Below are positions 23,001 to 61,258 of a stretch of 64,000 nt of DNA, in pieces (positions within the stretch are counted from its first letter, which is position 1; each line of letters opens with the position of its first letter). Both the position numbers and the translations under genes were made by a program. The notes under the pieces were generated by a model. The model searched no databases. It was not told the DNA's origin and saw only the letters and a program-made list of their open reading frames with translations. Source of the stretch: Nitrososphaerota archaeon (GTDB taxonomy: Archaea; Thermoproteota; EX4484-205; JAAOZP01); assembly GCA_011605725.1 (NCBI GenBank), contig JAAOZP010000011.1, positions 96,001-160,000 on the forward strand, given 5' to 3'.

Positions 23001-26000
23001 CCAGCGGCGGGAAAGTGGTCATCATCACGGTAGGCGGCACGGTTTTCAGCAGGAATGTGGAAGACGCTTTCTACGAGGAGTGGGTTAATGCTGGAGCAAC
23101 AGTAAGCTATGCTTTCGAGGAAACCTTGTCTACAGCAATGTCGGGGAAAAGGTTTAGCCTCCACCATGTATCAGGCACTTCGGCAAGCTTCTCCAACGAC
23201 TTCGGTCCCATTTCAGGACCAGTATATGAAACAGCATACTATAAAGCTCAATACTATATTACTGTAATCAGTGACTACGGCAGCCCAACTTCCTCAACAT
23301 GGGTTGACGAGGGGACCAGTTTCACCGCCTCGGTGACAAGCCCGGCTGAAACCATGGTCAACCAGCACCAATGGGTCTGCACAGGCTTCAAGGTAGATGA
23401 GAATCCTGTTCAAGAGGGTTCGAGCTACACGTTTGTAAACGTGCAGACGCCGCACACCATAGTGTTTTACTGGAAGAAACAGTTCTGGATCCAGGTTAAC
23501 AGCAACCATGGTTCTCCAACACCCTCCCAATGGGTGGATCAGGGTGGAAGCCTTATGGTGAGCGTAACCTCTCCAACCGACGAGTCTGAAGGAGTAAGGT
23601 ATAGGTGTAAAGGCTACACTATAGATAGCAACCCGCCTGTTGAAGACGGGAGCACAAGCCACTTTTTCAGTGACGTTCAGAGTGCTCACACGATTACTTT
23701 CAACTGGATCGCCCAGTACAAGGTTACTTTCTACACTAATCCTGTTCAGGGGACTGTAACGGTTCGGGGAGTAGTTAAGAATAATGGTGAAAGCGAGTTT
23801 TACGATGATGGGGAATCAATCCCGATTACTGCGAACCCTCCCTCTGGCTACTGGTTCTCACGCTGGACAGTAACCGGCGGAGTCGCTGTAGACAACTATG
23901 GGAGTCAAACGGCAATTATGATGGTGAGCAGACCAGGCAGTCTTTCAGCAATATTCGTCATAAACGCTGTCTCAATAACAATCACTTCCAGCCCTGTTAC
24001 TGGAGTAGGCTTCATCAAGGTTGACGGCGTGCCCTACAATACTCCGGTAACTTTCACATGGGTAACTGGGACGACCCACGTGCTGGAGGCGGTTTCAATC
24101 GTGCCTGGGGCAACAGGCATTAGGTATGTATGGAAAAGCTGGAGTGACAGCGGGGCTCAGATGCATGTCTACACTGTCCCCAGCATGTCTGAGACAGTGA
24201 CAGCATGCTTCTCAACCCAGTATTATCTGACGGTGATTTCACCGCACGATACTCCAGGAGGCTCAGGATGGTATGAGGAGGGCTCAATCGCGTATGCAAC
24301 GCTTGAGACCAGAATTGTTGTCGAGAACGGTGTGCAATACGTGTTTACAGGCTGGAGTGGAGACGCTTCCGGAACAAGCCTTACGAGTAACCCGATAATG
24401 ATGAACGGTCCGAAAACCGCTGTGGCGAACTGGGCAACTTCAGCATACACGGTGACTCTCGACAAGAGCCCGAGGCAAGGAGTGATCACAGTTGACGGTG
24501 TTGTTTACACGAGTCTTCCGGTAGTGCTCAACTGGGTTCCAGGATCTTCTCACACGGTTATGGTTCCCAGTATTGAAGAGGCGGGAGGCACAAGGTATGT
24601 TTTCAGAGAATGGTCAGACGGCTCGACACAGGCTAGTAGAATAATCGTCGCTGAGAAAACTGGAGCAGTCTATGTCGCCTACTACAACGTGCAGCATAGG
24701 CTAACGGTCTACTCTGACCACGGGCTGACCACGGGCTCAGGATGGTATGACGAGGGTGTTGAAGCAGTTTTCTCCGTAACACCAACCATAGTGAGAGACG
24801 AGACAGAGGGAGTGGAGTACACGTTTAAAGGCTGGGTTGGAAGCGGGGCTGGAAAACACTACACCGGGCCGGATAATCCTGCGCGAGTCATAATGACTGG
24901 GCCTGTTGAGGAGAAAGCAGAATGGGAGCCTTCAATGTACTGTTTAAAAGTTGTCAGCGAGTATGGAGACCCGTATGGAAGCGGCTGGTATCCTGTAAAC
25001 TCTGAAGCACGGTTCGGAGTAAACACGCCTGTTAACCATGGTAACGGCACGATGAGAGTCTTCTTAAACTGGTTTGGAGACATAAGTCTCAGGGAGCCTG
25101 TTGGAACCCTGATTATGGTTAGGCCGTATACTGTAATAGCCAACTGGGACACTCAATACTTAGTGGTTTACAATACGACTGCTCCAAACGGTGTTTTACT
25201 ATCTGTGCCAGGAGTGCCTCAAACATTGGCACCGGGCTTCAACGTTTACGCGCAGTATTACTCAGCAGGAAGCAGGGTTAAAATCGGGCCGGCGCCCGGA
25301 ACCGTGTACGCGACTGAGGATACAAGGTATTGTTTCGAAGGCTGGATGATAAATGGGGAACCGGTCTCTTCCGATTCGAACCTAGACTTTACTGTGAATA
25401 AGCCTCTGCACATATCCATGACATATGGAACCGAGATACTCTTGACTGTAAACGTGGTAGGGGCGAATCGCAACTTCACTGTGAAACTTACGGTGGAGAA
25501 GAGCCCAGCCTACGTGCTTGACATCACGCCCTTATCTCCCTTTAAAGAATGGGTGAAGAAAGACACTGGCTTAACCCTCACCGTTTCCAGCCCGAACAAG
25601 ATAGGCCGTGGAGAGTGGGCTGTTTTCAGAGAATGGTCTGGAGACGCTCAGGGAAGTCAGAGAATAATCTCGTTGAAAGCTTCGAGACCAATAACGGTGA
25701 ACGCAGTGTTCTTCGCGGTCAACCCGGTTGCAGAATCAATACCCTACTCGCTGTTAACGGGCATAGTGTCGATAGTTCTTTCACGTTTAATACGGAGAAA
25801 ACGTGCAGAAGAACCCTTGGAACACCGGAGCTATTCGCCAACCCTGGGAATAGTGTCGCTGACTGCTGTGTTAACCGTATCAATAATAGTGAGCATCAGC
25901 GTAGCCATGGGCTACGGGATAAACGTTGCTGAGCTTCCAGACTTAGAAAACTGGGCCGTATTGTTCACCGGGGTTGAGGCAATCTTCTTCCTGGTCGCGA

Positions 26001-26077
26001 CACTGCTTGTTACAAGGCGTTCTTACCCGAGGAAGATGGAGATCCCAGTCATCTATCCGAACCCCTACGGGATTTAA
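20060..26077 (+). CDS. Giant cell-surface protein with about 20 beta-rich repeats (divergent InlB B-repeat-like) and about 3 C-terminal TM helices
   Basis: Signal peptide; recurrent GxGWYDxG..RYVFxxWxG..AxWxxQY units; many NxS/T sequons. Confidence 0.8.
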   Translation: MMILNTCRIFVRRFGKTWAGVLLVSMMLLVVLSMLPTSLHTSAVPPSRQPPSITINTVTQDGNLFTVKGVASFSVPAGQTSQYHVQVVWEHNGSVVFQNDYAEIPPLKDLGEERYEYDFADSRTLNTGGEWTIRARLYHVKPPGNDNQADASTKIIFTTFMVTITTKPEGLKIAVDGEVYTSPQTFAWLNGSKHTIGTFSPQSEGDTIYTWVSWSDGGEISHMVTAVGDAIYTAFFKKQYLVCFNQTGLDSSATGVIVTVNGSSKSYDKLPFSNWYDENDWISYSYAETVNSSQTGKRFKLNYVTGPASPFQVSSFTLVIGSYTPQYLLTVETEPDGLTIIPGGGWYDANSLIILTAPGTIPVSQGIQYRFSHWSIDGVSQGMGVNPITVSMNTTHTATAHYVLQYYLTVESPYGAPSPGSGWFDAGTSITASVTSPWPPDSADTRSVCTGWVGTGSAPSSGTNTEVSFTINAPSSITWSWKTQYRVAFIQTGVDVDFTGVVMTIDGIGHGREGHAAWYDVGASIDFNFTGLLVVAVNQKRYVLTSVNASTPLIVTGPLTVMGSYRTQYYLTMITSHGTVSPGDGWFDAGSTVEITAALPPVVQGERYVWMGWTGTGSGSYTGMQNPAQITVNSPIKESASWKHQYYLAVNTPYGTAGGEDWYDEGSAAYATVAPLTVDGPDGVRYVFSHWSGDASGTASTSDPITMNAPKTAIAIWKTQYRVVFNQNGLDETAVGTVVTVNGSEHMQSNLPFTTWVDSGASINYGFESIVLTSDPGKRFRLNNVTGPETPFTVTGPVTVAGNYVTQWRVVFTVDPPGSGTTVPSGAGWYDAGIRFSISAEANPGFSFSEWTVNTSSINIADTSSQQTSVTVNGQGTVTACFTIFYTVSFTQIGLPTGVEWSVTFNGVTKSSTSNTIVFSNVQTGDYAWSTLTLIQLDSGTRYLASPSFGTLSVPSQLTQTISYTAQYRVEISWSGLDAEASGGKVVIITVGGTVFSRNVEDAFYEEWVNAGATVSYAFEETLSTAMSGKRFSLHHVSGTSASFSNDFGPISGPVYETAYYKAQYYITVISDYGSPTSSTWVDEGTSFTASVTSPAETMVNQHQWVCTGFKVDENPVQEGSSYTFVNVQTPHTIVFYWKKQFWIQVNSNHGSPTPSQWVDQGGSLMVSVTSPTDESEGVRYRCKGYTIDSNPPVEDGSTSHFFSDVQSAHTITFNWIAQYKVTFYTNPVQGTVTVRGVVKNNGESEFYDDGESIPITANPPSGYWFSRWTVTGGVAVDNYGSQTAIMMVSRPGSLSAIFVINAVSITITSSPVTGVGFIKVDGVPYNTPVTFTWVTGTTHVLEAVSIVPGATGIRYVWKSWSDSGAQMHVYTVPSMSETVTACFSTQYYLTVISPHDTPGGSGWYEEGSIAYATLETRIVVENGVQYVFTGWSGDASGTSLTSNPIMMNGPKTAVANWATSAYTVTLDKSPRQGVITVDGVVYTSLPVVLNWVPGSSHTVMVPSIEEAGGTRYVFREWSDGSTQASRIIVAEKTGAVYVAYYNVQHRLTVYSDHGLTTGSGWYDEGVEAVFSVTPTIVRDETEGVEYTFKGWVGSGAGKHYTGPDNPARVIMTGPVEEKAEWEPSMYCLKVVSEYGDPYGSGWYPVNSEARFGVNTPVNHGNGTMRVFLNWFGDISLREPVGTLIMVRPYTVIANWDTQYLVVYNTTAPNGVLLSVPGVPQTLAPGFNVYAQYYSAGSRVKIGPAPGTVYATEDTRYCFEGWMINGEPVSSDSNLDFTVNKPLHISMTYGTEILLTVNVVGANRNFTVKLTVEKSPAYVLDITPLSPFKEWVKKDTGLTLTVSSPNKIGRGEWAVFREWSGDAQGSQRIISLKASRPITVNAVFFAVNPVAESIPYSLLTGIVSIVLSRLIRRKRAEEPLEHRSYSPTLGIVSLTAVLTVSIIVSISVAMGYGINVAELPDLENWAVLFTGVEAIFFLVATLLVTRRSYPRKMEIPVIYPNPYGI

Positions 26078-27443: not shown

Positions 27444-28772
27444 GTGGCGAATTCCAGCAGAGCGGGTAAAAACCTTGTGCTTATCCTATTGATGGTTATG
27501 ATCCTTTTCACAGGATGCTCGCATTTTAATCAAGCTATAGGAGAGGCATCTGGGGAGTATGATCTGCTCGTCATCGGGCCAGAATCCTATCGGAGAATCC
27601 TGCAATGTTTTCTAGACTTTAAGGCAACACAGGGTATTAAGGCCAAGTTTCACCCGATCGAGCTGATCAGCATGAACATAACAGAGCCAAGTATTATTGC
27701 TGAAAAACTCCACGAGTTCATTGCTGGAGAATACTTTAAGTCAAGCATTAAATATCTGATTCTAGTAGGAACATATGAGCATGTGCCCACGAAATACGTT
27801 TACTCGCCGGGCGACGAGCTTGGGATGGCTGACTTCAACTATAAACCGTCTGACTGGTATTACGGTGTTCCAGACTGGAATGACTCTGAAATCGGCCTCT
27901 TGGGCGGAAACATTCCGAGGATTGCTGTCGGAAGACTGCCTGTGAAGAATGAAGAGGAGCTGGACCGTTTGATCAAGAAGATTATCCGTGTGGAAGCAGG
28001 TTTTCAACCAGGCCTGTTTCTCATACTGAGGGATCAATCTGTTAACGTTGATCAGCTGCTTAACGTGCTGCACTTCTCCAGTCCAATACGTGTAAACACG
28101 ACTCCCAGCACCCTGGATTCCTCCTTCTTTAAAAACGTAACCTTCTTGGTGACGATAACTCACGGCAGTTGGAATACGCTTTTCACGAGAACGCCGGAGG
28201 GAGAGTTAAAACCGCTAGTAACCTCTAATGAGGTTAGCAGGATAACGGAGAACTATGCTCTTCACTACATGGCTGCCTGCTTCGCGGGGGCACTTGACTC
28301 GGAGGGTGAATGCCTAGCACGTGTCCTTATTACTTCAGCCGGAGGGCCAGCTCTAGTGATCGCAAGTTCTAGAACAGAATGGTCTGAAAACCCTATTCTG
28401 CCAGTGTTCTGGAAGCGTTTTCTCGCCACGGGGGACGTGGGCGGATCATTCATAGAGGCTGTTGAAACATACCTTCTGGACGCAAATGTTTTCTCAGCGT
28501 CTAAGCCATCGTTCAGCCAGTATAATTTCTACCTTACCAAAGTAATATATGGAGACGTGTCTTGGAGAGTTGAAAACCCTGTGGGCAGCATGATGAATAG
28601 AGACGCATCGCCTAATTCAAGCAGCCGTATGGAAAACAGTTTAAAAGGTCTTTTAAACACGAATATTGTCGAGAAGGAGGCTAAACCCGCCTGGATCATC
28701 ATCCTGCTGCTTGCAACAGTTTTTCCAAGCTGTATTCTCGTTTTTCAAAAACAGTGGAAGAGTTTTCGCTGA
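27444..28772 (+). CDS. Peptidase C25 (gingipain-like) cysteine protease, membrane-anchored
   Basis: YLILVG..HVP, SDWYY, IAVGRLP, THG (His), AACFAG (Cys), YGD; N- and C-terminal hydrophobic helices. Confidence 0.8.
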   Translation: MANSSRAGKNLVLILLMVMILFTGCSHFNQAIGEASGEYDLLVIGPESYRRILQCFLDFKATQGIKAKFHPIELISMNITEPSIIAEKLHEFIAGEYFKSSIKYLILVGTYEHVPTKYVYSPGDELGMADFNYKPSDWYYGVPDWNDSEIGLLGGNIPRIAVGRLPVKNEEELDRLIKKIIRVEAGFQPGLFLILRDQSVNVDQLLNVLHFSSPIRVNTTPSTLDSSFFKNVTFLVTITHGSWNTLFTRTPEGELKPLVTSNEVSRITENYALHYMAACFAGALDSEGECLARVLITSAGGPALVIASSRTEWSENPILPVFWKRFLATGDVGGSFIEAVETYLLDANVFSASKPSFSQYNFYLTKVIYGDVSWRVENPVGSMMNRDASPNSSSRMENSLKGLLNTNIVEKEAKPAWIIILLLATVFPSCILVFQKQWKSFR

Positions 28773-46870: not shown

Positions 46871-47971
46871 ATGAGAATCGCCTTCGTTTATGACGCCGTG
46901 TACCCATGGGTTAAAGGGGGAGTGGAAAGAAGAATATACGAACTCGGGCGCAGACTGTCCCGTCGACATGAAGTCTACTGGTTCGGGTTAAAATGGTGGA
47001 GTAGTGGAGAGAGGAATCTTGACGGTATTATGCTTCACGGCGTTGGAGAAGGAAGGCCTCTTTACGTTAATGGGAAGCGTTCGATAAGCGAAGCCTTATA
47101 TTTCGGCCTTAAACTGCTTTCCGGCTTAAAGCATGATATAGACTTTATGGATGTTCAAGCTTTCCCATATTTTTCCTGCTTCTCTTCTAAAGTTCGTTCA
47201 ATGACTGCTGGAGTATGCATGGCGGTGACTTGGCACGAGCTCTGGAACAGCTACTGGTTTGAATACATGGGTCTAAAGGGGCTTGCGGGCTGGGTTGTTG
47301 AGAGAGCAGTCTTAAAACTTACGCCTATGCATATTGCCGTGTCAGATGTAACGAGAAGGAGTCTGGAGAAGGTTGGTGTTCACGCCGAGGTAATCCCGAA
47401 CGGGATAGACTTCGAACATATAGCGGGAGTACGTGGAAGCGGTGAAGAGTCTGACATGGTTTTCGCAGGAAGGCTGGTGAAAGAGAAGAATGTTGACTTG
47501 ATTATTAAGGCGGTGAGAATTCTGAAGGACAGTATTCCAGACGTTAAATGCATGATAATAGGCGACGGACCTGAGAAACAGGCTCTTGTAAGCCTTTCGG
47601 AGCAGCTTGGAGTAAGGGAGAACGTTGTTTTTAAAGGTTTTCTTGAGGATCATGACGATGTAATAGCCTTCATGAAGTCTTCAAAAGTATTTATACTTCC
47701 TTCAACAAGGGAGGGGTTCGGAATCGTTGTTTTAGAGGCGAACGCGTGCGGCCTGCCTGTTATCACAGTCAGGCATGAGAGAAATGCTGCCTGCAGCCTG
47801 GTTGAAGAAGGTTTAAACGGTTTCACATGTCCTGTTTCACCTGAGAAAATTGCGGAAAAAACCTTGGAAGCAATGGGGAGGAACATGAGGCAAACGTGTG
47901 TTAACAATGCCTCAAAATATGACTGGAGCAGCATCATAAGACTTTACGAGGATTTTCTAAAAAAGGTCTGA
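46871..47971 (+). CDS. GT4 glycosyltransferase
   Basis: GGVERR, IPNGID, GRLVKEK, REGFGIVVLEA. Confidence 0.92.
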   Translation: MRIAFVYDAVYPWVKGGVERRIYELGRRLSRRHEVYWFGLKWWSSGERNLDGIMLHGVGEGRPLYVNGKRSISEALYFGLKLLSGLKHDIDFMDVQAFPYFSCFSSKVRSMTAGVCMAVTWHELWNSYWFEYMGLKGLAGWVVERAVLKLTPMHIAVSDVTRRSLEKVGVHAEVIPNGIDFEHIAGVRGSGEESDMVFAGRLVKEKNVDLIIKAVRILKDSIPDVKCMIIGDGPEKQALVSLSEQLGVRENVVFKGFLEDHDDVIAFMKSSKVFILPSTREGFGIVVLEANACGLPVITVRHERNAACSLVEEGLNGFTCPVSPEKIAEKTLEAMGRNMRQTCVNNASKYDWSSIIRLYEDFLKKV

Positions 47972-47987
47972 ACGCTATGGTGACCAG

Positions 47988-48410
47988 TTATTCCTGCTGA
48001 TGCTTTGCACTACACATCCTTAACACGCCGCGTGTGTTAATATATGGCGGAACACTGCCGGTTTCTAGCATGGAGCAGACCTCTGGACCAAGTCCTTTCG
48101 AAACAATCCTTTTGAACGCTCTCCATGTTAAAACAGATACTGCAAGCATTCTTCTAGTATCTATAAGAAGGATCCTCCACTTTCTGCAAAAACTCGCAGC
48201 ACTCTTAGAAACCTCTACTCTGCCATAATGCGTTGCCCTCGCATACATTCCTCGTCTGGACTTTACTCTCGCTCTTGACAATGCTACAACACATATGAAT
48301 TCCCTGTGGGAAGGACTGATCTTCCAGTACTTGTTGTGCTTAACTGCGTTTACAAGGTCTTCTGCTTCCTTCTTAGACAGCCTTTTAAAAACACTATCCT
48401 TGAACATCAT
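47988..48410 (-). CDS. Hypothetical basic protein
   Basis: 140-aa ORF filling the gap after the TrmB gene; no motif recognised. Confidence 0.55.
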   Translation of the reverse strand: MMFKDSVFKRLSKKEAEDLVNAVKHNKYWKISPSHREFICVVALSRARVKSRRGMYARATHYGRVEVSKSAASFCRKWRILLIDTRRMLAVSVLTWRAFKRIVSKGLGPEVCSMLETGSVPPYINTRGVLRMCSAKHQQE

Positions 48411-48453
48411 GCTTCGCGGAGCCTAACAGAGTAAGGAGCCTGCCTAACAATCC

Positions 48454-49668
48454 TCAAGAAGGCTGAAGCTCAACCACCCTGATCCCGTAGAAGGTGGCCA
48501 ACTGCTTCGCGTCCTCGCTCAGCCTCGGCTTCACTATTAGAGTCGACCCGTTAATCATGTCTTCAACATCATTCTTCTTGGTGTAGAAACCGATTATGGA
48601 TGTGACAGGAACATCAGTCACATCGAAAACAATATCGCAGACGATCGGCTTATCCCCGTTTAAAACACCCATGTCAAACACATGCGTAATTCCGGATTTA
48701 CCGGTTATTCTTATACCTTCCTTAACCTGCAGCCCAACCATTGAGAGGTATTGTGAAAGCTGCTCCTTAAAAGAAGCGTACTCCTCCTCCTTCATTTTCA
48801 ACTCCTGTTCAGCGGGAAGCATTCTTACCGATACTTCCTCAGGCTGCATCATGCTTGTAAACAGCTTTTTGAGAGACTGTACCAGGGCATCGCTATTAGT
48901 CCAGATCGCTGTAGCCTCTTTTCTCTCAGCCCGGCTTACACCTGGTGGTTTAGTAAACATGAGGAGCTGCTTATTGTCAACTATTACGAACCACGGTGAT
49001 GAAATACTCATCGTCTTAACCTCTATGACCTCAGCATGCTTCTTAAGAAACGACGTTATGCTTGACGTCCCTAAAATACCATGTGTAAGTATTTGGATAT
49101 GGATGTTGTCTTTGCTCAGGTTTCGAAGCTTCTGCAGGATTCCAGCGTTATATGCTCTAACAAGTTCCGTCCTAGAAGCTACGATGTTAACCTCCTCTTT
49201 AGCCTCATCCAGCATGTCTGAAAGCCTTGCGTAAATCTGCTCTATGCCCTTCAAAAGCTGAATCTTCTCCTGCTCCTCTACCTTAGAAGGAACACGGACC
49301 TTTTTCCATATTTCCATCAACTCCTCTTTACTCTTCTCCATCGTCATTATTCTTCTCTTCTCAGCCTCAATCAGGATTTCAAGCGCTTTTTCAAAGCCTA
49401 TTGCTGAGAATTTAGCGGGACGATCTAGACTCGCTTCTATAATACCCTTATTCTGAAGGCTAGTCAGTATGTTGTACACTTCTGTCCTCGAAATACCCAG
49501 TGATAATCCTATTTCACTAGCCTTCATCGGCCCTAGTTTTAAAAGATGTATGAAAACCTTGGCCTCATTATCAGTTAAACCATATTCGCCGAGCTCCTCC
49601 CGGAGTTTTTCAAACTCTTCAGATTCCCCGCCTAAAGCAATACGGCTCTCTTCCTCTATAGAAGCCAT
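48454..49668 (-). CDS. TrmB-family regulator with C-terminal restriction-endonuclease-like domain
   Basis: GLTDNEAKVF..SRTEVY..L..KG wHTH; effector domain (IVDNKQ, IWTNS); GKSGITHVFD domain. Confidence 0.82.
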   Translation of the reverse strand: MASIEEESRIALGGESEEFEKLREELGEYGLTDNEAKVFIHLLKLGPMKASEIGLSLGISRTEVYNILTSLQNKGIIEASLDRPAKFSAIGFEKALEILIEAEKRRIMTMEKSKEELMEIWKKVRVPSKVEEQEKIQLLKGIEQIYARLSDMLDEAKEEVNIVASRTELVRAYNAGILQKLRNLSKDNIHIQILTHGILGTSSITSFLKKHAEVIEVKTMSISSPWFVIVDNKQLLMFTKPPGVSRAERKEATAIWTNSDALVQSLKKLFTSMMQPEEVSVRMLPAEQELKMKEEEYASFKEQLSQYLSMVGLQVKEGIRITGKSGITHVFDMGVLNGDKPIVCDIVFDVTDVPVTSIIGFYTKKNDVEDMINGSTLIVKPRLSEDAKQLATFYGIRVVELQPS

Positions 49669-49810
49669 CGCTGGATTTAAACATATGTATGTCAACGGTG
49701 CTAATTAAGCTTTTTTAAAAAGGACGGAAGTGCCTAGTGGTCTAAACCCCGTCGCGAGAAGCATTAAGGTTAACACAAAACCTTAAGTATTAAAACCTGT
49801 TTTCTGCTTA

Positions 49811-50605
49811 ATGATGATCGGGTTAATCCTGGCTGCCGGCAAGGGTACTAGGATGCGGCCTTACTCGAACGCAATAAACAAGGAGATGTCCCTAATCGGG
49901 GAAAGCCCCGTGATAGAGTATAACGTGAAGGCTCTTGCAGACGCCGGGGTTAGAAAAGCCTTCATAGTGCTTGGAGAAGGCAAGTGGCAGATATTTGAAT
50001 ACCTTAGAGACGGTTCCAGGTTTAACATCGCCCTTTCCTACATATATCAGGATCTAGGTGAAAAGGAGGAGAAAAAGGGTACTGCGAAGGCAATACAGGT
50101 TGCTGAGGAATGGGTTAACGATGATTTCATAGTGATTTATGGAGACTCGTTTTTCCACCCGTATGATTTCCTGAGAAGCGAGATTGAGCTACATGAGGAG
50201 AAAAAGGCTGACGTTACCATGGGGATCTACATGATGAAGGAGTATAAGGATTACGGTATTGTTAGAATCGAAGGTGAAAGAGTAGTCGACATACTGGAGA
50301 AAGCCACTCAAGAGGAGGCGGAGAAAACCAGGGTTGACGACATGTTTGCAGTCAATTCCGGTCCAATAGTTTTTACGCGCGAAGTCTTTTCCTACATAAA
50401 GAAGACCCCTGTTTCACCAGCGGGAGAATACTGGATAACCGACACTATCAGGCTAATGATTAAAGATGGTAAGAAAGTATTAGCATACAGGATACCTGAG
50501 GGAGTCTTCTGGAGGGACATTGGAAGGATGAAGCACAGGATGGAGGCTGAGGCATATTTCTTAAGCAAACATTATGAGTATACTGGGGTTTTAAACAGGA
50601 AATGA
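49811..50605 (+). CDS. Glucose-1-phosphate thymidylyltransferase-like nucleotidyltransferase
   Basis: LAAGKGTRMRP, GTAKAI, YGD, GEYWITD, WRDIG. Confidence 0.88.
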   Translation: MMIGLILAAGKGTRMRPYSNAINKEMSLIGESPVIEYNVKALADAGVRKAFIVLGEGKWQIFEYLRDGSRFNIALSYIYQDLGEKEEKKGTAKAIQVAEEWVNDDFIVIYGDSFFHPYDFLRSEIELHEEKKADVTMGIYMMKEYKDYGIVRIEGERVVDILEKATQEEAEKTRVDDMFAVNSGPIVFTREVFSYIKKTPVSPAGEYWITDTIRLMIKDGKKVLAYRIPEGVFWRDIGRMKHRMEAEAYFLSKHYEYTGVLNRK

Positions 50606-51653: not shown

Positions 51654-52556
51654 TCAAAAAATTTGAAGTATGCTTAGCAGGATGATGATTGTTCCGAGTG
51701 CCAGACAATAGTAGGAGAACTTGTGAAAGCTATGTTTAACAACGTAACTCCTAACCGTTCCTAGGGCAAGGTAGCCGACGACAGCGGTTACCAGAACCCC
51801 TAGGCTAATCATCCAAAACTCTTGCTCGAAACTAATTTCTTGAAGCTTGACGAGGCTTCCGCCTATTATGCTTGGGATTGATAAGAGCAGGGAAAACCGG
51901 TAGGCCTCCTCATACTCAACCCCTCTAAGCAGCCCGGTTGAAACAGTTATTCCTGTTCTGGATATCCCGGGTGTGATTGCAGCAGCCTGAGAAAACCCTA
52001 TCAGGAATGCGTCTAAAGCACTTAGTTTCCTAACCGGTTTAGCACGCCTCGTTGAATACAGGATTAAGCCGTTGAGAAACATCGCAACCCCTGTTGCGAA
52101 AAGGCTTTGAAACAAAGACTCGAAGAAGCTTTTAAGAAAAAAGCCTGCTAAGCCGATGGGAATTGTGCCAAGCGTAATGTATACGAGCATTCTGCCTTCT
52201 TCCCCTGAGAAATCGAGCCTAAAAACTGTCCTGACAATGGATTGTAAATCCTTTCTCAGAAACACTGCTACTCCAATGAGGGTTCCCAGATGAAGCACAA
52301 TGTCGAAAGCAACGGAGACTTTTATGTTAAACAGCTCCTGCACTATTACTAGGTGCCCAGTGCTTGAAACCGGAAACCATTCTGTTAAACCTTGAACGAG
52401 GCTTAGGCAAACCGTCTCCAAGATTCCCGTTAAGCCTATTCTTACCTGTTTGGAAAAATCAACGGTTAAAACTGCCTCGGCGAAAATAACTAGCGTTTGA
52501 ATAAACAGGCAAGTAGTGAGGATAAACGTTAGCGACCGGCGTTTTCTCGTGTCCAC
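51654..52556 (-). CDS. uppP: Polyprenyl-diphosphate phosphatase (UppP/BacA)
   Basis: VQGLTEWFPVSSTGH, LHLGT, PGISRTG, FSLLLSIP; GTG 52556 lies about 25 nt below a TATA-like box. Confidence 0.92.
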   Translation of the reverse strand: MDTRKRRSLTFILTTCLFIQTLVIFAEAVLTVDFSKQVRIGLTGILETVCLSLVQGLTEWFPVSSTGHLVIVQELFNIKVSVAFDIVLHLGTLIGVAVFLRKDLQSIVRTVFRLDFSGEEGRMLVYITLGTIPIGLAGFFLKSFFESLFQSLFATGVAMFLNGLILYSTRRAKPVRKLSALDAFLIGFSQAAAITPGISRTGITVSTGLLRGVEYEEAYRFSLLLSIPSIIGGSLVKLQEISFEQEFWMISLGVLVTAVVGYLALGTVRSYVVKHSFHKFSYYCLALGTIIILLSILQIF

Positions 52557-52593
52557 AGCCTTTCGTCGCAACCATCTTATAAAAGTTTTACAG

Positions 52594-55500
52594 TTAATAA
52601 TTTTCAACAAACTTTCTTGCCGATATCTCATACATCTTTCCCTCAGCGTCGAACGTTATAATGTTTTTGTTCAGCCGTATTGCTGCTATCGCGAGCGCTG
52701 AGCTTAACAGGCCGTCGTCTGAATCTAGACATACAGCGTCTATCGTGAGGATTTCTTCAGAAAGCCTTTCGACAAGCGTATTCATGTCTCTCGATTCAAC
52801 CCTCCTAACCTCGATCGTCGGAGGCCAGATGCCTTCAGACCTAACTTTCCTCCTCAATTCCTTCACCTTGCCGCTTACATCCGATCTCGAATAGATGATT
52901 AAAAATTGAGGGCGGTATTTTCTAACAACTGTTGCGGCATAATCCACTGACTCGCCCATTACTACAGCCACGTTAAATCTTAATGTAGACCATTCAAGGA
53001 CGAGTTTCCTAACATGAGTTATAACTTCATGCGCATTTGACTCGAGCATAACTGCGTAGAGGGATTTCGTATGAACGTAAGCCGAGTATTCTTCCCCGTC
53101 CTTCTTAACTTCGATCGTGGTTAAGGCTGTAAACGGCCTATTGCCTCCCTTTCCATACCTGAAACTCACCGAATACGAGACATTTCCATTCTCATCCAGT
53201 TTTTCCTCACGTGAAACATCTGAAATTACCAGTTCTAACGCTGTACTGCTTTGAGGCAATCTTTCGTAAAGATAGTTAACAAACGTTTCAACCTTCTCCG
53301 AAGGAATCCTCACCGGGATTCGAACCGTCCACACTCCTTCTTTAACTACTTTTTCTTCCATTCTCCATCTTCTTAAAAGCGAGGGAGTTGCTATTTTCGC
53401 AGCCTTTAAGGCAGGAATTGTCGAAGAAACCATGGCTGTCAGAAATGCCATAAGTATTAGGGAGAACATATCTAGAGGAGTAGTTTTCACGTCAATGGGT
53501 ATGATCATGTTAGAGACATCAAACACTTTGAATATGATCATGCTCAATATATAGCCAATACCACCACCGATGAAACCGAATACTCCTGCCTCCACTATGA
53601 ACAGGCTGGAAATATGAGTGGGGTTTAAGCCTACAGATGAAAAAATGAATATTTCATTCCTCCTTTCGTAAACCAGCGTGTAGAACAGCAGCGTAATGTT
53701 TAACACAGTAATGATAACTGGGATGAGAACCGATATGCCAAAGACCTCGACAGAACCTCCTCTGAAGTAGTAGGTTATGCCTTCTGAGCTCGGCATAGTT
53801 ATGACTGAATAGTTAGCGAGCAAAGCCAATCTTCTTGAAACCTCTCTCGCCTGCGCATTGTCTTCGAATGTGCAGTAGAGCGCGGAAACATAGCCGCCTA
53901 ATCTTTGAGCGGTGAAAGCATCCGTTATCAAGAGGTTGTCAGCAGGTACCGGCTGAGCGTTTTCAAAGCCTGGAAGAATATACATGGGCAGGAAATGGCT
54001 ACCATCAGGCTCTTTTATCACGTTAACCGGCTCGCCATCAAATATGCCGACTACCTTTAGCCTTACACCTTTGAAAACAATGGTCATGCCCACGTCCACG
54101 TCTGCTCTGTTTGCCAAATACCTGCTTATGAGAACAGCATTACTGTTGTTGAACAGGCTTTCTATTGCATGCTCCGGGTATGTAGCGCTCTTAATAAGGT
54201 CTAGAGATGGATCTCCGGGCGAAACTCCTCTAACCCCATAGATCGGTACCTCGCTAACATAGTCTAGAGCGCCGTACGCAACGGGGGTTATCACCTTATA
54301 GTCTATTCTTGAAACCTCTCTCTGCGCACCTATGAAGCTAAAATCTTCAAGCGCGAGTGGGCCGGAAGGCTTGATCACCATCGACACCGGAGGCTTATCG
54401 GCTGGCCACGTTTTCGCCACCATAACAGCGTTAGTCGTTAGGGATACCCTTATTGAAGTCAGCGTGGATATTGCTATGATCATTATTGTAATGGAGACAA
54501 GAGTAAGTGTAGTTCTTAGCTTCCTCTTTTTCAAGTTTCCAATAGAGTATGAAATAGCGATCAATAAGGCAGGTATCAGTGAAACTCCTCGCTCGCTCTT
54601 TATTTCAAGAAAGTAGGGAGCTATAAATACAATTAGAAACATGAATATAACAATATAGATTCCTGTCTGAAGCTCCAATACTGTGATTCTTGAAAGACCT
54701 GGGAACACCTGGTAAGCTATAGTCATTAAAACGATGAATGTAATCACCGTCAACATTGCGTATTGATCCTTCCTCTCTGCAATTATCGAGCCGATGCATA
54801 AGGATAGGATCGCAACAATCACAAATACTATAATCTGGTTGGTTCGCGTTTCCCTCAAAATATTTTGAATATTACTGATTATTAATATGCTGCTCATCAC
54901 GGCTTCTTGCTGATACGCCAGTATCTTAATTGGGTCAGTGGCATTTAAAATAGCTAAACGGAATCTTTCAATCTGCTCCAACCTGTAAAGCTCCAGGCCT
55001 ACGTAGAGCCCAATATTCCTAGTTTCTTCTACATGTCTTTCAGCGGATTCAACGGTTTTGTTGACGAGAGTTTGATAGGACTTTACTTGAAGTAAAGCAG
55101 GCTGGTCTAAGTAGGTTTTAGCATTTTTGCTTAACCTAATTGGCCGAGTACTATTCCCTATTTCCAATACTGTTCTTCTCCCACCGACAGTGATTGAAAC
55201 CAGTATCCATAAGTCTGTTTCAGAAGGAACTATTAGGGTGTTTCCAGTTATGTTTAGCAGACCAAGTAGCGGCAGATGGCTTGAATCATAATTCAGTATC
55301 AGTTGATTAAGCCGCGTCTCATTAAGAATGAGGACACGCATTTCCTGAGTTGGAATCAGCAGGTCGAAAGGGGAAGGAACAACAGCTAGGACCTTTGCAA
55401 CCGCTCCTGGACATAGGTTTATTTCCACGTTCTTGGTTTCTCCGACTGATAGTTTTCCTAGGCTTATTATTTGAGGCACATAAGTATCTTTTTCGTTTAG

Positions 55501-57969
55501 AGAAGGACCTATGATCCTTATTTCTGAGCCAGAGGGCACTGCTATCGTCGTTTCATTCCAAACTCTGGCGACCGTATACGTCTCGTTCATGAACACTAGG
55601 AAAAACTGGGGTTCCCTTGGCTTCGGGTTTAACGTTATTTTAAGCATTGATGATGGTTTTACGACGAAGCGTTTAGAATTTGTGTCGATTCTGGTGCCGT
55701 TTGCTAGGAGCAGCTCCGTTGAAACCTCCAGCACATGTTCAGAGTCAACATGGTGCGGCGCCTCGAAGACGCGTTTTACAGCGAGATAGGCGGGTGATGA
55801 TGAAGAGGGTATTTCAACGCTCATGTTCTCACTGACTAGAGTTTTATTGCAGGTTATGTCGTTCAACCTCCAGCTTAGCACTGCGTTGAAAGGCTCCTGA
55901 AACACGTCGTTCACAAGCCAGAGCCTAATCCTAACCGTTGAGCCGGGGAGAAAGAATAGGGATGTCAGATCATGCCTATAGTCTCCGTCAACCATTATTA
56001 CGGTATGCACAGGGTTGAAAGCATTCATAACCTCGTAGTAAGATTCTTTCTTAAATCCGTAGGAATCTACGATTGAGCCGCTGACGAGCAGGGGGTAGTC
56101 TGTAAGTGGAAGAACATTAACCCCTATGGAAATATTGTACCTAAGTATTCTTGCCCTGTCTATAGCATGCCTCAAAACTAGAGATTGATACTTCTGGCTT
56201 AGCTCAATTAAGCTGGAGAGGTTTTTAGCCAAATCTCTCCAGTAGGTGTTTAGGAAAACCGGGTCAAGCCCCTCTGCCTGAAGAAGCGTAAGAACCTGCT
56301 CATAGGGCAGGTTTTGAGCCTCTACCCAGAATGGAGAGTTTAAACTGGGTAAGCCCACTGGACTAACTATGTTTGGAAAGGACTCCTTGTAATGCAGATA
56401 GTCAACCCAGCTTCCCGTTCCCCAACCATAGTTCACGAACCTATCAACATAATCGTATGTCTCAACGTATGATAGAACCATGATTCTCTTATTCACCTCC
56501 TTAACCAGGACGTTCAGATCACGGTCAAGGTAGAAATTGGTTCCAGAACCATAGTATGGTGACTCCCTGTTCAGCCACGGCACGAGGGTGTGGGGACAGA
56601 CTATTGTTATTGAGGGATAGTTGTAAGTTAGCAGTAACAGTTCAACAAGCTGCATCTTCACGAGCCTAGCATAGTTTTCAGAGTAGTCTAGAGTAGGGTA
56701 GGCGCCTATCAGGGGGAAGTCCAGCTGGACGATGAAGCCTTTCAAAGAAGTTAACTCGTAGAACTCTTTCGGCTCAACATGCGCGAACGACCTTAAGAAA
56801 TTAACGTTGGCTTCTCTCAGCAGGCTGAGCGTCTCATTCATTTTAAAGCTACCGCTCGTATCAGTAAGCCATTCGAGCCTAGAGAAATAAGACCCACCCC
56901 TTAGAAAAACACTTCTACCGTTTACTTTAATGTAAGGATTCTTCCGGGTAATCGAACCCTCTAAGAAACGTACTCCAAATAATGTTTCAACCGACCCGGC
57001 GTACTCATCACCATGGTGCAGACTAATGTTGAGAAGGTAAACGTTTGGAACACCAATATCCCATGGGAACCAGTATGCTGGGTCCCGGAGGGAGATGCTT
57101 AAAGTTTCCCACCTTCTTTCCCAGGCAGAAAGCTTTATGCTGAACGACTGTTCTAAGCCGGCTGTGTTGTTGGGGCCAAAGCCCTTTATTCTTACGGATG
57201 CTACAAAGCTATCGTCAACATCCCCCTTGTTCTGAAGTAGAATACGCAGGTTTAAGGAGGCAGGGTTCGAGTACTGTGCAATATCAATCAAGACCAGGTT
57301 AATAACTGGGTTCAGTGTCCCGACGAGGGTAACGCCTCCAGATATCCCGATGTAACTGTTGCGGAGGTTTGGAAGAACCTCTGAGAAAGAGTATATGCCC
57401 ATCGGGTAAACTCTGGATTCATACGTTTCTTGGGTTGGAGCCTCTAAGTATAGGGTCAGTAAGTTGACACCGTCCCGAACAACAATTTCATCTATGTCGA
57501 AGAAGAATTGGGAAAAATAACCCACATGCTCCCCCAAATAGAAGCCGTTCAGCCAGACTTTAGCAGCAACCCAGACACCTGAGAAGACAAGCCTCAGCCT
57601 CTGCCCCCTCATTTCACTAGGCACTGTGAATAATTTTCTTACCCACAGCGAGCTGTTTGACCTGGTTGACTTAAAAAGGAAGGGTGCTTCAACCCTGCTC
57701 CATGAAGAATCATCATAACAAGGATCATAGTAGAGATTAATGTTTCCAGGGTCGAAAGCGTCAACCTTGTAACTCCACTTTCCAGTCAATTCATGTTTAG
57801 AAAGATAGAAGTAGTCAAATGGCGCGAGGTACGAGGAAACCTTATCCACCAGGTTTTCAGAGGGTTCTATGAAGAAATACCGTAAACCAGGAAGAATCAG
57901 AGCCACTATTAACATCGATACTGAGACTACTGTCAGAAGCGGCTCTGCAATTCTCCTGGCCACCATCAC
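52594..57969 (-). CDS. GH2-like domain / FtsX-MacB permease / CARF-like fusion protein (1791 aa)
   Basis: KVWLNG..G.H.GYF, YWFPWD.G.P, NGR.VFLRG, ANVNFLR (GH2); NLKKRKLRT.LT, ERRNEI...SSVGLNP..I...F..EA (FtsX); Rossmann-like C-terminal tail. Confidence 0.8.
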   Translation of the reverse strand: MMVARRIAEPLLTVVSVSMLIVALILPGLRYFFIEPSENLVDKVSSYLAPFDYFYLSKHELTGKWSYKVDAFDPGNINLYYDPCYDDSSWSRVEAPFLFKSTRSNSSLWVRKLFTVPSEMRGQRLRLVFSGVWVAAKVWLNGFYLGEHVGYFSQFFFDIDEIVVRDGVNLLTLYLEAPTQETYESRVYPMGIYSFSEVLPNLRNSYIGISGGVTLVGTLNPVINLVLIDIAQYSNPASLNLRILLQNKGDVDDSFVASVRIKGFGPNNTAGLEQSFSIKLSAWERRWETLSISLRDPAYWFPWDIGVPNVYLLNISLHHGDEYAGSVETLFGVRFLEGSITRKNPYIKVNGRSVFLRGGSYFSRLEWLTDTSGSFKMNETLSLLREANVNFLRSFAHVEPKEFYELTSLKGFIVQLDFPLIGAYPTLDYSENYARLVKMQLVELLLLTYNYPSITIVCPHTLVPWLNRESPYYGSGTNFYLDRDLNVLVKEVNKRIMVLSYVETYDYVDRFVNYGWGTGSWVDYLHYKESFPNIVSPVGLPSLNSPFWVEAQNLPYEQVLTLLQAEGLDPVFLNTYWRDLAKNLSSLIELSQKYQSLVLRHAIDRARILRYNISIGVNVLPLTDYPLLVSGSIVDSYGFKKESYYEVMNAFNPVHTVIMVDGDYRHDLTSLFFLPGSTVRIRLWLVNDVFQEPFNAVLSWRLNDITCNKTLVSENMSVEIPSSSSPAYLAVKRVFEAPHHVDSEHVLEVSTELLLANGTRIDTNSKRFVVKPSSMLKITLNPKPREPQFFLVFMNETYTVARVWNETTIAVPSGSEIRIIGPSLNEKDTYVPQIISLGKLSVGETKNVEINLCPGAVAKVLAVVPSPFDLLIPTQEMRVLILNETRLNQLILNYDSSHLPLLGLLNITGNTLIVPSETDLWILVSITVGGRRTVLEIGNSTRPIRLSKNAKTYLDQPALLQVKSYQTLVNKTVESAERHVEETRNIGLYVGLELYRLEQIERFRLAILNATDPIKILAYQQEAVMSSILIISNIQNILRETRTNQIIVFVIVAILSLCIGSIIAERKDQYAMLTVITFIVLMTIAYQVFPGLSRITVLELQTGIYIVIFMFLIVFIAPYFLEIKSERGVSLIPALLIAISYSIGNLKKRKLRTTLTLVSITIMIIAISTLTSIRVSLTTNAVMVAKTWPADKPPVSMVIKPSGPLALEDFSFIGAQREVSRIDYKVITPVAYGALDYVSEVPIYGVRGVSPGDPSLDLIKSATYPEHAIESLFNNSNAVLISRYLANRADVDVGMTIVFKGVRLKVVGIFDGEPVNVIKEPDGSHFLPMYILPGFENAQPVPADNLLITDAFTAQRLGGYVSALYCTFEDNAQAREVSRRLALLANYSVITMPSSEGITYYFRGGSVEVFGISVLIPVIITVLNITLLFYTLVYERRNEIFIFSSVGLNPTHISSLFIVEAGVFGFIGGGIGYILSMIIFKVFDVSNMIIPIDVKTTPLDMFSLILMAFLTAMVSSTIPALKAAKIATPSLLRRWRMEEKVVKEGVWTVRIPVRIPSEKVETFVNYLYERLPQSSTALELVISDVSREEKLDENGNVSYSVSFRYGKGGNRPFTALTTIEVKKDGEEYSAYVHTKSLYAVMLESNAHEVITHVRKLVLEWSTLRFNVAVVMGESVDYAATVVRKYRPQFLIIYSRSDVSGKVKELRRKVRSEGIWPPTIEVRRVESRDMNTLVERLSEEILTIDAVCLDSDDGLLSSALAIAAIRLNKNIITFDAEGKMYEISARKFVENY

Positions 57970-58067: not shown

Positions 58068-60410
58068 ATGCCTGTGAAAACACCTGCCAAGGTTATAGAA
58101 ATATTTAAAAAACACTACTACATTCTGTCTCTGCTGCTGCTCTTCATATACGCATTACTTTCTGTGAAAACAATTTTTCTAGAAGGCATGATCCCGGGCT
58201 GGGATAACCCTGTGCACTACGTGAACTCCCATCTCACAGCGCTCTACATGTTTCCCAGGCTGGATATTCTAGGCTGGGATCCTTTCAACCAGTTCGGCTG
58301 GGTTTTCAACCTATACTACAACCCGGGCATGAGCATCTTCGTCTCCTCCATATACCACTCATTTCTAGGCTTCGTAGACACTCTGTTAGCGTACAAGATC
58401 GCTTTCTTCCTAGCGTATTTCCTACCGGCTCCCGCCACATTCATGTTCGTCCACGCTTTAACAGAGGATAAAATCGCATCCCTAGTTGCCTCACTGCTTT
58501 CAATAACAACCTTCACCGAGGAATCTGCGTGGTTTGACGCTGGTTTAAAGCAAATGTACTACATAGGCATGTGGCCAGAGAGACTGGGCCTAGTTTTCGT
58601 TTTTTTCAGCATAGCCCTCTTAGCCTACTCCTTTAAATCTAAATCCATAGGGAAAACCCTGTTCCTCACAGGACTAGGATCTCTGTTCTTCACAATGGCT
58701 GTTCTAACCCATGTAATGATGGGGATTTCAGCGGCTTTAATGGCATTATTACTATGGCTATTTGTTTTCCTAAAAACAGTAGTAGAGTTCCCAAGTTCTA
58801 CTAGTCAAGGACTCGTATCTCTCTTAAAAACAGAAGGCGTTGTCTTGGTGAAGTTCACATCCATAGGCTTGCTTTCCTTGGGAATGGCTGCTTTCTGGAT
58901 GGTCCCGCTTTTTCAAACACTAGAGACGTATCACAGTTTCCCAGCCGTCACGTGGTCCACTGGACCATATATTTTTGGAGAAACATTTGCCAGTTTACCA
59001 TGGTACCTCCTGGTTTTTTATTGCCTAGGTGCTTTCGCACCAGTTTACGCAGGAAGTAAAGTCTCCTATTCATCCTTAGCTGCATCCGCAGTCATCCTCA
59101 TTCTGCAGTTCCTGAACCTAGTTAACCTGTACGATGGCAACATTGGACTGAGGCTTATTTTCGCGTTCGCGGTGTCACTGGTTTTGCTGGTTTCCTCCAA
59201 GGACCTCTACGTGCCGTTCCTGCTTGCATCCATATCTATCCTTGGTTTTCTGGCAACAGGACCCGATACATACCTTGTGTGCTTCGGCCCGTTTAGACTC
59301 GACCTGCTTAGTCTAATACCGTTCGCAAGAAGCTTCGGCTACTCCAAGTTTAATGCTCCAGTCAGGATTCTAATACTCAGCTTAGCAGCCCTAGGTTTCT
59401 CGAAGATTTTAAGCAAGCTCTACACGCTCTCCAAAACAACAAGATTTCCAGCAGTTTTCTCGATAATAGCCGGATTGCTAGCGTTCTTGATCCTCAATTC
59501 TTCGCTTAGTGCCCAATTACAGAATACTGACCTCGCCTACCCTTTTTCCAAGGAGAAGGTTTTCAAACTAACCTCAGACTACCCGGGCTTCAAAAAAGTT
59601 GACGAGCTTACAGGCTGGGTTGAGAACAATGTTCCCGGAGACACTTACATACTGTTTCAGGATACTTTGGATTTCGGCGGCAGCGAGGATTTTCAGACAT
59701 CCCACTATGTCTATATTGCTTCAATAAGGCTAAAAAGGCCTATTATTGGCGGTTGTTTTGGGACTCGCTATATAACTAATCCTTATGCCCTTACCGAGGG
59801 AGGGTATCTTCTAAGCTTCCCCATTGAAAAGCTGATTAAGAACGATCTGATTAAGCGACTGATGGATGAGCTTGGAATCGGCTACATCGCTATCCATGAT
59901 TCGAGACTAATAAATTTCTTAAACTCCTCCACCGATTTTTGCCTCGAGTATTACAATGGCTTGTACGCAGTTTTTCGGAAAACTAATTCCTCAAAGATTG
60001 TTTTCATCCAGGGAGAGGGGAGAGTCGAATCAGTAGACTTCACCATAAACAAGATTGAAGCCACAGTATCCGGCGTGTCTGGAAATGCTTCATACCTGAT
60101 AGTTAGACAGGTTAACTTTCCAGGCTTCACCGCCGAAGCAGACGGGGAAATTATTTCTATAGACACATATTATCCTAAGCTGCCAAACGTAATAACGGGT
60201 TGGCAGGGAATCCAGCCGGTATTCAACTGGAGAATACCGTTCATCAAGGTGAAAATACCAGCCGGGTCTAACAGGGTAACATTAAGGTTCAGTATTCATA
60301 CCGTGGGAAGCGACATATCAAAAATAGCCTGGACAGTGTTCCTCTGTCTTCTGATCTCCGGCATAGTCCTGCCGACAGTAGGGAAGTTGCGCAAAAAATG
60401 GCGAAAGTAA
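58068..60410 (+). CDS. Polytopic GT-C-like glycosyltransferase (PTPS-related/YfhO-like membrane protein)
   Basis: GWDNPVH..WDP...G....YYNP first loop, more than 10 TM helices, C-terminal external domain (NFPGF). Confidence 0.7.
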   Translation: MPVKTPAKVIEIFKKHYYILSLLLLFIYALLSVKTIFLEGMIPGWDNPVHYVNSHLTALYMFPRLDILGWDPFNQFGWVFNLYYNPGMSIFVSSIYHSFLGFVDTLLAYKIAFFLAYFLPAPATFMFVHALTEDKIASLVASLLSITTFTEESAWFDAGLKQMYYIGMWPERLGLVFVFFSIALLAYSFKSKSIGKTLFLTGLGSLFFTMAVLTHVMMGISAALMALLLWLFVFLKTVVEFPSSTSQGLVSLLKTEGVVLVKFTSIGLLSLGMAAFWMVPLFQTLETYHSFPAVTWSTGPYIFGETFASLPWYLLVFYCLGAFAPVYAGSKVSYSSLAASAVILILQFLNLVNLYDGNIGLRLIFAFAVSLVLLVSSKDLYVPFLLASISILGFLATGPDTYLVCFGPFRLDLLSLIPFARSFGYSKFNAPVRILILSLAALGFSKILSKLYTLSKTTRFPAVFSIIAGLLAFLILNSSLSAQLQNTDLAYPFSKEKVFKLTSDYPGFKKVDELTGWVENNVPGDTYILFQDTLDFGGSEDFQTSHYVYIASIRLKRPIIGGCFGTRYITNPYALTEGGYLLSFPIEKLIKNDLIKRLMDELGIGYIAIHDSRLINFLNSSTDFCLEYYNGLYAVFRKTNSSKIVFIQGEGRVESVDFTINKIEATVSGVSGNASYLIVRQVNFPGFTAEADGEIISIDTYYPKLPNVITGWQGIQPVFNWRIPFIKVKIPAGSNRVTLRFSIHTVGSDISKIAWTVFLCLLISGIVLPTVGKLRKKWRK

Positions 60411-61258
60411 AGGATTTTTTAGTCGAAGCAAGGATTCTAGACTGGTATAAGAATCTACTTATACTCGTTGCACCATTCTTCGGCGGAAAGCTTCTGTACC
60501 CAGTCTATTATCCTAGCCTTTTATTGGGGTTTCTAGCCCTTTCAGCCACCTCCAGTGCCTGCTACGTGATTAATGATATTAAAGATGCCGCTCGGGATGC
60601 GTACCACCCTAGGAAAAAACATAGGCCTGTGGCTAGTGGGAAAATGAGTAGGGCTTCGGCGTTAATCTTCTCGATAACCCTACTGGGGTTTTCCCTCTTC
60701 ACCTCATACTGGGTAAGCATCATCTTTCTAGTACTGTGCATCTCCTTATTCCTAAACTCGATCATTTACACTTTTTTCCTAAGGGATGTAGCATGGTTAG
60801 ACTTACTTAGCATATCTCTTAATTATATCATTAGGTCACTAGCAGGAGCAGAAATAGTTAACGTCTATGTTTCGCCATGGCTGTTGATCAGCGTCTTCTA
60901 TACTTCAATGCTCCTTGCATTATCGAAAAGAAGAGAGGAATTAACCGCTTTGAATGAGGCTGAACATTATAGGAAGTCTTTCAAGCACTATGACGTGACT
61001 CTTATAGATCAAGCGATCACCGTCTTCTCAACCCTAATAATAATCTCTTATTCTCTCTATACTTTTCACTCGCCTTATGCAGATGGTCCTTTGCCTTTTA
61101 CGATTCCGATAATAACGCTAATAGTATTGCAGTTCATTTCTGTTTCGAAAAAAACCGGGGAAGCCGGAATAATAAGAAGACTCCTGTCCAGCAGGACCAT
61201 CGTTACAAGCCTCCTTATTTGGCTTGTAATAATGTTTTACCTAATATATTTAACATGA
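60398..61258 (+). CDS. UbiA-family polyprenyl-phosphate phosphoribosyltransferase (DPPR synthase-like)
   Basis: WYKNLL, YVINDIKD..D..HP.KK.RPVASG, KRREEL. Confidence 0.85.
   Translation: MAKVKDFLVEARILDWYKNLLILVAPFFGGKLLYPVYYPSLLLGFLALSATSSACYVINDIKDAARDAYHPRKKHRPVASGKMSRASALIFSITLLGFSLFTSYWVSIIFLVLCISLFLNSIIYTFFLRDVAWLDLLSISLNYIIRSLAGAEIVNVYVSPWLLISVFYTSMLLALSKRREELTALNEAEHYRKSFKHYDVTLIDQAITVFSTLIIISYSLYTFHSPYADGPLPFTIPIITLIVLQFISVSKKTGEAGIIRRLLSSRTIVTSLLIWLVIMFYLIYLT

Follow-up and report, generated by a model that had tools for sequence, protein, structure and literature searches.

The giant fusion gene and its locus

The DNA analyzed here (the window, 64,000 nucleotides) carries on its minus strand a single uninterrupted ORF (52594 to 57969), without internal stop, that encodes a giant fusion protein of 1791 aa. 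From its N-terminus, this protein combines a pseudo-GH2 unit, Ig linkers, a stalk, three TM helices, a MacB/FtsX domain and two further domains, one KA1-like and one CARF-like (all features of this gene given below are on the minus strand). Hydropathy indicated a TM anchor or signal helix at the N-terminus (residues 11-29, 57883..57939) and three extra TM helices (residues 1046-1121, 54607..54834). Between them lie the beta-mannosidase-like GH2 unit (55645..57867) and a linker with a predicted helical stalk (residues 776-1045, 54835..55644), whose fold is suggested by the sequence pattern and in which weak matches to paralogue C1 start at residue 839. The MacB/FtsX-type membrane domain (53380..54507) was recognized by Pfam and by alignments. 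In it, TM1 is followed by an extracellular core domain and then by the three other TM helices (TM2-4); its coupling helix reads ERRNEI..SVGLNP (53614-53673). Pfam domains were GH2_N (residues 104-183), GH2 Ig (235-334), MacB_PCD (1154-1381; 27.2 bits for a cut-off of 27) and FtsX (1414-1526; 58 bits). The N-terminal and extra TM helices and the MacB-type permease had been proposed in the initial annotation of this DNA, and both hydropathy and Pfam agree with them; the two cytoplasmic domains were absent from it and are identified here.

The fusion gene shares a 98-bp intergenic region with a divergent gene, on the plus strand, for a polytopic protein of 780 aa (58068..60410). This conserved neighbour had no Pfam match; it is related to YfhO/PTPS and is a candidate GT-C-like glycosyltransferase. 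Also on the plus strand is a UbiA-family gene (60398..61258), whose best match, below the cut-off, is a decaprenyl-phosphate phosphoribosyltransferase. Immediately downstream of the fusion is a minus-strand gene for a BacA/UppP polyprenyl-diphosphate phosphatase (51654..52631), and this neighbour is kept within the genus. Near the locus, the region 46871-50605 contains genes for a GT4 protein, a TrmB-like regulator and a nucleotidyltransferase. Elsewhere in the window, a 2005-aa protein with divergent InlB B-repeats (20060-26077, plus strand) is followed by a C25 peptidase gene (27444-28772).

The fusion is genuine, because full-length homologues are present in many genomes and an independent contig covers the region. 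The homologues, named Candidatus Brockarchaeota or Thermoproteota, show 53-92% identity, and the full fusion profile has matches in 16 genomes from a Brockarchaeota-like order and in a few others of the phylum. The contig, 142 kb long and from a separate sequencing run, spans the fusion unbroken, with 30 SNPs and 0 gaps. These data rule out an assembly chimera, a concern raised in the initial annotation. A decaying pseudogene is ruled out by purifying selection, with dN/dS values of 0.16 for the GH2 barrel, 0.08 for the CARF part and 0.06 for the KA1 part, the last two being among the most constrained of the fusion. Two assemblies, G007 (C36/C15) and G009 (C50/C32), each have two copies of the fusion and of its GT-C-like neighbour; one of the two fusion copies is near-identical across both, which suggests duplication or binning contamination.

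A GH2 head that has lost its catalytic glutamates

The AlphaFold model of residues 35-790 had a mean pLDDT of 67, with poorly predicted barrel loops, and its best Foldseek matches were beta-mannosidases (5n6u, E 2.4e-37). Pfam and the model showed the order found in GH2 beta-mannosidases, namely jelly roll, Ig, TIM barrel (56005-56934) and Ig. Residues 35-775 thus have the same domain order and fold as the Dictyoglomus (5n6u) and Bacteroides Man2A (2je8) enzymes. The GH2 identity given in the initial annotation is borne out; its extent (about 56000-57800) was too short, as the unit continues to about 55645. By hydropathy and positive-inside charges, the GH2 unit is extracellular and the C-terminal tail cytoplasmic. 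In agreement with this, residues 30-1045 contain 16 sequons for 8.7 expected (p 0.013). The initial annotation is supported in its layout of a dead GH2 unit outside, a MacB-type domain in the membrane and a tail in the cytoplasm.

Since the modelled barrel loops were poor, catalytic residues were mapped by sequence alignment. Six full-length relatives that keep HNE and TE(L/F)G (P0029, P0045, P0046, P0048, P0050 and P0055) served as intact references, and P0029 was aligned to mannosidase 5n6u through both catalytic motifs. The acid/base Glu corresponds to L462, in H460-T461-L462 (56584..56592) instead of H-N-E, and the nucleophile Glu to I534, in N533-I534-V535-S536 (56362..56373) instead of T-E-(L/F)-G. 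The loss of both glutamates, already suspected in the initial annotation, is confirmed, although the nucleophile site had been read there as SPVG, three residues after the true register; the acid/base loss stands. Position 462 is Leu in all 27 dead-clade sequences and Glu in the six intact ones, while position 534 is I, L or V in all 27. Aromatic residues of the sugar pocket are also replaced in the alignment (W to G422, F/W to G631, DWD to FSE); G422 is found in 27 and G631 in 26 of the 27 dead sequences.

It could be argued that such a head is still enzymatic, through a non-canonical mechanism or another reaction. R393, H397, D417, H460 and W516 are invariant in the 27 dead sequences and D624 nearly so, and the substituted residues G422 and L462 are fixed too. 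However, both carboxylates are now aliphatic, the retained residues also occur in intact members and may be structural, and a relative from G022 has lost much of the barrel. An active head is therefore considered very improbable. The catalytic residues have been lost while the barrel stays under purifying selection, so the GH2 head appears to be maintained for a non-catalytic role.

Fusions from other lineages retain both GH2 glutamates, and P0049, with Asp at the nucleophile position, represents an in-between state. In the GH2 tree, a well-supported branch (100/98) separates the dead heads from the intact fusions and the free GH2 enzymes. This pattern fits a scenario in which the fusion came first and the catalytic loss later. 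The permease tree is a quick one with open deep nodes, which leaves it uncertain where G022b belongs and how many losses occurred. A GTDB pattern search with P0029 returned a free GH2 and nothing else, and a plasmid search gave partial matches only, all five matches listed being free GH2 genes. In P0025 and P0026, a GH43-like domain (E 1.4e-5, below the cut-off) lies inside the dead GH2 barrel, at about residues 600-880.

The cytoplasmic tail

Searches of Pfam gave no match for the C-terminal tail, and the Atlas gave no usable one. Its model (pLDDT 84) contains two domains. The first (residues 1538-1664, 52978..53358) resembles KA1 and adaptin-platform folds, with modest Z values of 9.1-9.6; a KA1-like tail after TM4 is common to all ten giant FtsX paralogues of the genome. 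The second (residues 1664-1790, 52600..52980) has a CARF Rossmann fold, with a Z of 15.0 to Csa3 (rmsd 2.2, 119 residues aligned) and 14.7 to Can2. In this genome the CARF domain is found on the fusion alone, the nine other giant paralogues being without it, and CARF tails also occur on family members that have no GH2 head.

An architecture search, one of the checks proposed with the initial annotation, showed that the fusion as a whole is already catalogued. It matches the PADLOC profile CARF_m8--CARF_Beta-galactosidase_LolE_TM (PDLC01990, length 1791) over residues 11-1788 with 1200 bits, and the profile fits intact members better (2449 bits for P0029). CARF_m8 reportedly corresponds to one of the minor clades in Makarova et al. 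2020. The entry consists of a name only, and is silent on the dead catalytic residues, on a motor in trans and on the OPT and GT-C links described below.

This match, together with cyclic oligoadenylate (cOA) sensors as best fold matches and a Cas10 with GGDD in the genome, could point to an antiviral CARF effector that senses cOA. In CARF-type cOA sensors, a TGGxK-type motif places a basic residue after strand 4. The corresponding position of the fusion, by sequence register, reads DSDDGL, an acidic stretch with no basic residue (DSDDG, 52711-52725). Distant relatives have TGG at the same position, supporting the register, and the basic residue in none. Compared with Csa3 and Can2, the tail shares the fold at 12-14% identity, with an acidic motif, no effector domain and no type III CRISPR link. 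Moreover, a Cas10 palm was found in only 2 of the 16 fusion carriers of the order, never adjacent to the fusion, and none of the loci examined showed defence genes. Because the motif lacks its basic residue and Cas10 is so rare among carriers, cOA sensing by the CARF-like tail is unlikely, and an antiviral cOA effector very unlikely indeed. The Cas10 gene of the genome was missed by TIGR02577 and found by PF22335; it is followed by a Csm3-like gene (G000 C15:7072-9480, L133).

A candidate motor encoded in trans

The genome (G000) encodes ten giant FtsX proteins, one mini-FtsX without ectodomain and four LolD-type ATPases. Five of the ten giants have M28-like heads and are flanked on both sides by DUF6785/6784-type OPT-like genes (C13, C2, C3, C5 and C7; L021, L023, L024, L025 and L027). 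The metal-binding motifs of these five heads look altered, and glycosidase-like genes are often close by. The mini-FtsX (231 aa; C10:57025-57720, plus strand) is single-copy in each of its 65 carrier genomes, and a LolD-type ATPase gene lies behind it (C10:57728-58462, plus strand; pair C10:57025-58462 = L064:5026-6463). Another ATPase gene is an orphan among housekeeping genes (C11:54087-54869, L059:8088-8870, minus strand), adjoining ABCE1/RLI, and has the same neighbour in distant families. The remaining two each have their own MacB operon.

The initial annotation had noted that no ABC ATPase gene lies nearby, and indeed no ABC ATPase match was found within the window, nor a LolD-type ATPase beside any of the ten giant FtsX genes of the genome. 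It had proposed a one-chain glycan-binding mechanotransducer that would link an outside polysaccharide to a cytoplasmic domain. Spelled out, this model is a receptor complete in itself and independent of ATP, presumably homodimeric, whose CARF-like domain inside would be rearranged when the head binds glycan. The presence of head, membrane domain and CARF fold on one chain, and the strong constraint on the CARF and KA1 parts, agree with such a receptor. However, a coupling-helix-like motif is kept in all ten giant FtsX. In 21 fusions, residues R1436, E1439, I1440, G1447 and E1460 of the coupling helix are invariant, and they agree with ordinary MacB permeases.

Further evidence came from gene clusters. 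The genes that flank the giant FtsX gene in bacterial operons encode ATPases, a small FtsX and OPT-like proteins. The ATPases of these operons best match those of C10 and C11 (48-62% identity), each time with higher scores, and a tree groups them together (SH-aLRT 85, an unstarred node); the bacterial small FtsX has the mini-FtsX as best match. A PqqD-like gene of the genome (C5:9371-9940) matches those of the bacterial operons and may be a scattered accessory part. In two complete archaeal genomes, G198 and G066, a giant FtsX, two OPT-like genes, both ATPases and the mini-FtsX occur in one cluster; these single-cluster forms (L126 and L127, respectively) also contain a GH57 gene and an unknown 183-aa gene. 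In G176, a CARF-tailed giant FtsX lies inside the motor-gene cluster.

The search for an ATPase partner was run as co-occurrence, counted over the giant-FtsX family as a whole, in genomes that are related to each other and with self-chosen score cut-offs: of 301 genomes of the phylum, 68 had the giant-FtsX tail, 68 the ATPase subfamily and 66 both. ATPase matches ended at 5e-93, well inside the cut-off of 1e-85. Incomplete assemblies (57-89%) account for three of the four mismatches, and the match persists inside mixed families (2/13 in f7, 5/6 in f19 and 2/8 in f28). The mini-FtsX was found in 65 of the 301 genomes (overlap 62), with a cut-off that overlooked true copies in G066 and G198. Complex prediction for the fusion with the mini-FtsX gave 0.41, against 0.00 for the best control; its runs had 74% or more of their contacts in common, and the pLDDT of the partner was 70 or higher. 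This is a weak signal that LolC/LolE likeness could explain. Among benchmark pairs, 58 of 80 solved ones and 2 of 110 mismatched ones reached the mark used for such predictions, but with values of 0.60 or below only 7 of the 80 did, together with both mismatched pairs, so that a pass in this range is often false.

Taken together, the intact coupling helix and the motor genes that co-occur and cluster with the family, CARF-tailed members included, rule out 'motorless' as the default reading. With a mini-FtsX and two ATPases elsewhere in the genome tracking the giant-FtsX family almost exactly, the motorless one-chain device is probably wrong. The sensor claim, in turn, would depend on a CARF fold that seems to lack the usual ligand motif, has no effector domain, is missing in the nine other giants of the genome and is found on members without GH2 head. 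The self-contained receptor is thus regarded as quite improbable.

Gene companions and possible client

The divergent pairing of the 780-aa GT-C-like gene with the fusion is preserved across distant lineages, whether the head is intact, half-decayed or dead. This GT-C-like family was found in 25 genomes only, all of them also with the genes of the proposed machine. Eight f12 genomes contain it with no GH2 fusion found, and in G021 and G022 it is not linked to the fusion. A PMT-like GT-C gene, distinct from the 780-aa family, flanks the CARF-tailed subunit of G176. P0068 (L145:2167-6771), known from one contig only, is a giant FtsX with a C-terminal PMT_2 glycosyltransferase fusion; its gene is downstream of a GT2-GtrA gene. 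The BacA, YfhO/PTPS-like and UbiA neighbours and the recurring GT-C links point to surface or lipid-linked glycan handling as the client of the fusion.

The same machine might instead serve nutrient uptake, the dead GH2 being a tethered head that captures oligosaccharides for OPT-like pairs encoded elsewhere, with incidental GT-C neighbours. The five paralogues located between two DUF6785/6784-type genes are in line with this, as are the intact GH2 fusions, which in three other lineages immediately follow DUF6785 genes, the most degraded GH2 fusion, which is accompanied by DUF6785 and GH35, and the GH57 of the G198 cluster. The host lineage is also rich in CAZymes (PMC8065059). On the other hand, no DUF6785/OPT-like gene adjoins the fusion at its locus, the divergent GT-C-like pairing is retained across distant lineages and the former sugar pocket is dismantled, so that uptake is considered the less probable reading, though a serious rival. 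G022 carries a second GH2 fusion, heavily degraded (L030:6660-11744), beside DUF6785, GH35 and an unknown 489-aa anchored protein.

A probable shared type VII ABC machine

On balance, the fusion is probably one of ten interchangeable large subunits of a heterodimeric type VII ABC machine, driven by the C10/C11 genes and with a glycan-related client; this reading is favoured with some reserve. Considering the coupling helix, the ATPase/mini-FtsX co-occurrence and the gene clusters together, a LolCDE-like assembly with a shared motor appears likeliest. The fusion would pair in the membrane with the single-copy mini-FtsX, and the pair would be powered by the two dedicated LolD-type ATPases, as in LolCDE. 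ATP binding may shift the extracellular core domain and the stalk, and hence the head. Relatives have an M28-like domain or an intact GH2 in this place, which would work beside OPT-like permeases, whereas in the fusion lineage the non-catalytic GH2 head may have been retained as a binding or scaffold surface. Since the fusion gene travels with genes for a GT-C-like glycosyltransferase, a putative UbiA-type polyprenyl-phosphoribose synthase and BacA, the likeliest client would be a glycan, either lipid-linked or at the cell surface, or else the glycosyltransferase. Motor use by the fusion paralogue is extrapolated from the family, its own locus having no motor or OPT gene. CARF folds are usually homodimeric, which fits poorly with a single large subunit per machine.

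LolCDE is a heterodimeric type VII ABC system, LolC-LolE-LolD2 (PMC8277102). The proposed machine would differ from it by one permease without ectodomain and another with about 1000 extracellular residues and cytoplasmic tails, by two different ATPases, by ten alternative large subunits and by its scattered genes. FtsEX, with EnvC-type partners, is a type VII ABC system that acts on an outside protein without solute transport (PMC8277102). Likewise, the proposed machine would move an outside protein rather than a solute, but here the outside module is covalently fused and catalytically dead, the host is an archaeon and the heterodimer is a predicted one. In contrast to the GH2 beta-mannosidases, the fusion lacks both catalytic glutamates and several aromatic residues of the pocket, and is membrane-fused. 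The giant M28-FtsX operons with DUF6785/OPT genes of bacteria and archaea share the membrane chassis, the KA1-like tail, the ATPase subfamily and the mini-FtsX; the fusion has a GH2 head in place of M28, a CARF tail, and a GT-C module instead of OPT genes at its locus. Literature searches, mostly outside subscription papers, found no paper on a giant-FtsX/OPT machine, on DUF6785/DUF6784, on FtsX with OPT, PqqD or M28, or on CARF with LolE.

The fusion architecture itself was known. New here are the assignment of candidate motor genes in trans to the archaeal family, the intact-to-dead GH2 series and the recurrent GT-C link. An orphan-looking giant protein can thus be assigned to a definite machine whose absent parts are named. 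In a more specific and rather doubtful version, the mini-FtsX and two ATPases would be common to up to about ten swappable giants, and the fusion would drive or proof-read the GT-C glycosyltransferase through its ex-glycosidase head, with the CARF-like tail as regulatory input, forming an ATP-powered surface-glycosylation machine of a previously undescribed type. The giant-FtsX family occurs in about a fifth of the searched genomes of the phylum and in bacteria, and its intact, half-decayed and dead GH2 heads on one chassis provide a natural enzyme-to-pseudoenzyme series. On such proteins, the labels 'beta-galactosidase', 'peptidase' and 'CARF defence' mislead metabolic and defence surveys of hot-spring archaea. 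If the proposed assembly is true, this family would follow a new organizing principle, in which one type VII ABC motor serves many large subunits whose exchangeable heads derive from enzymes.
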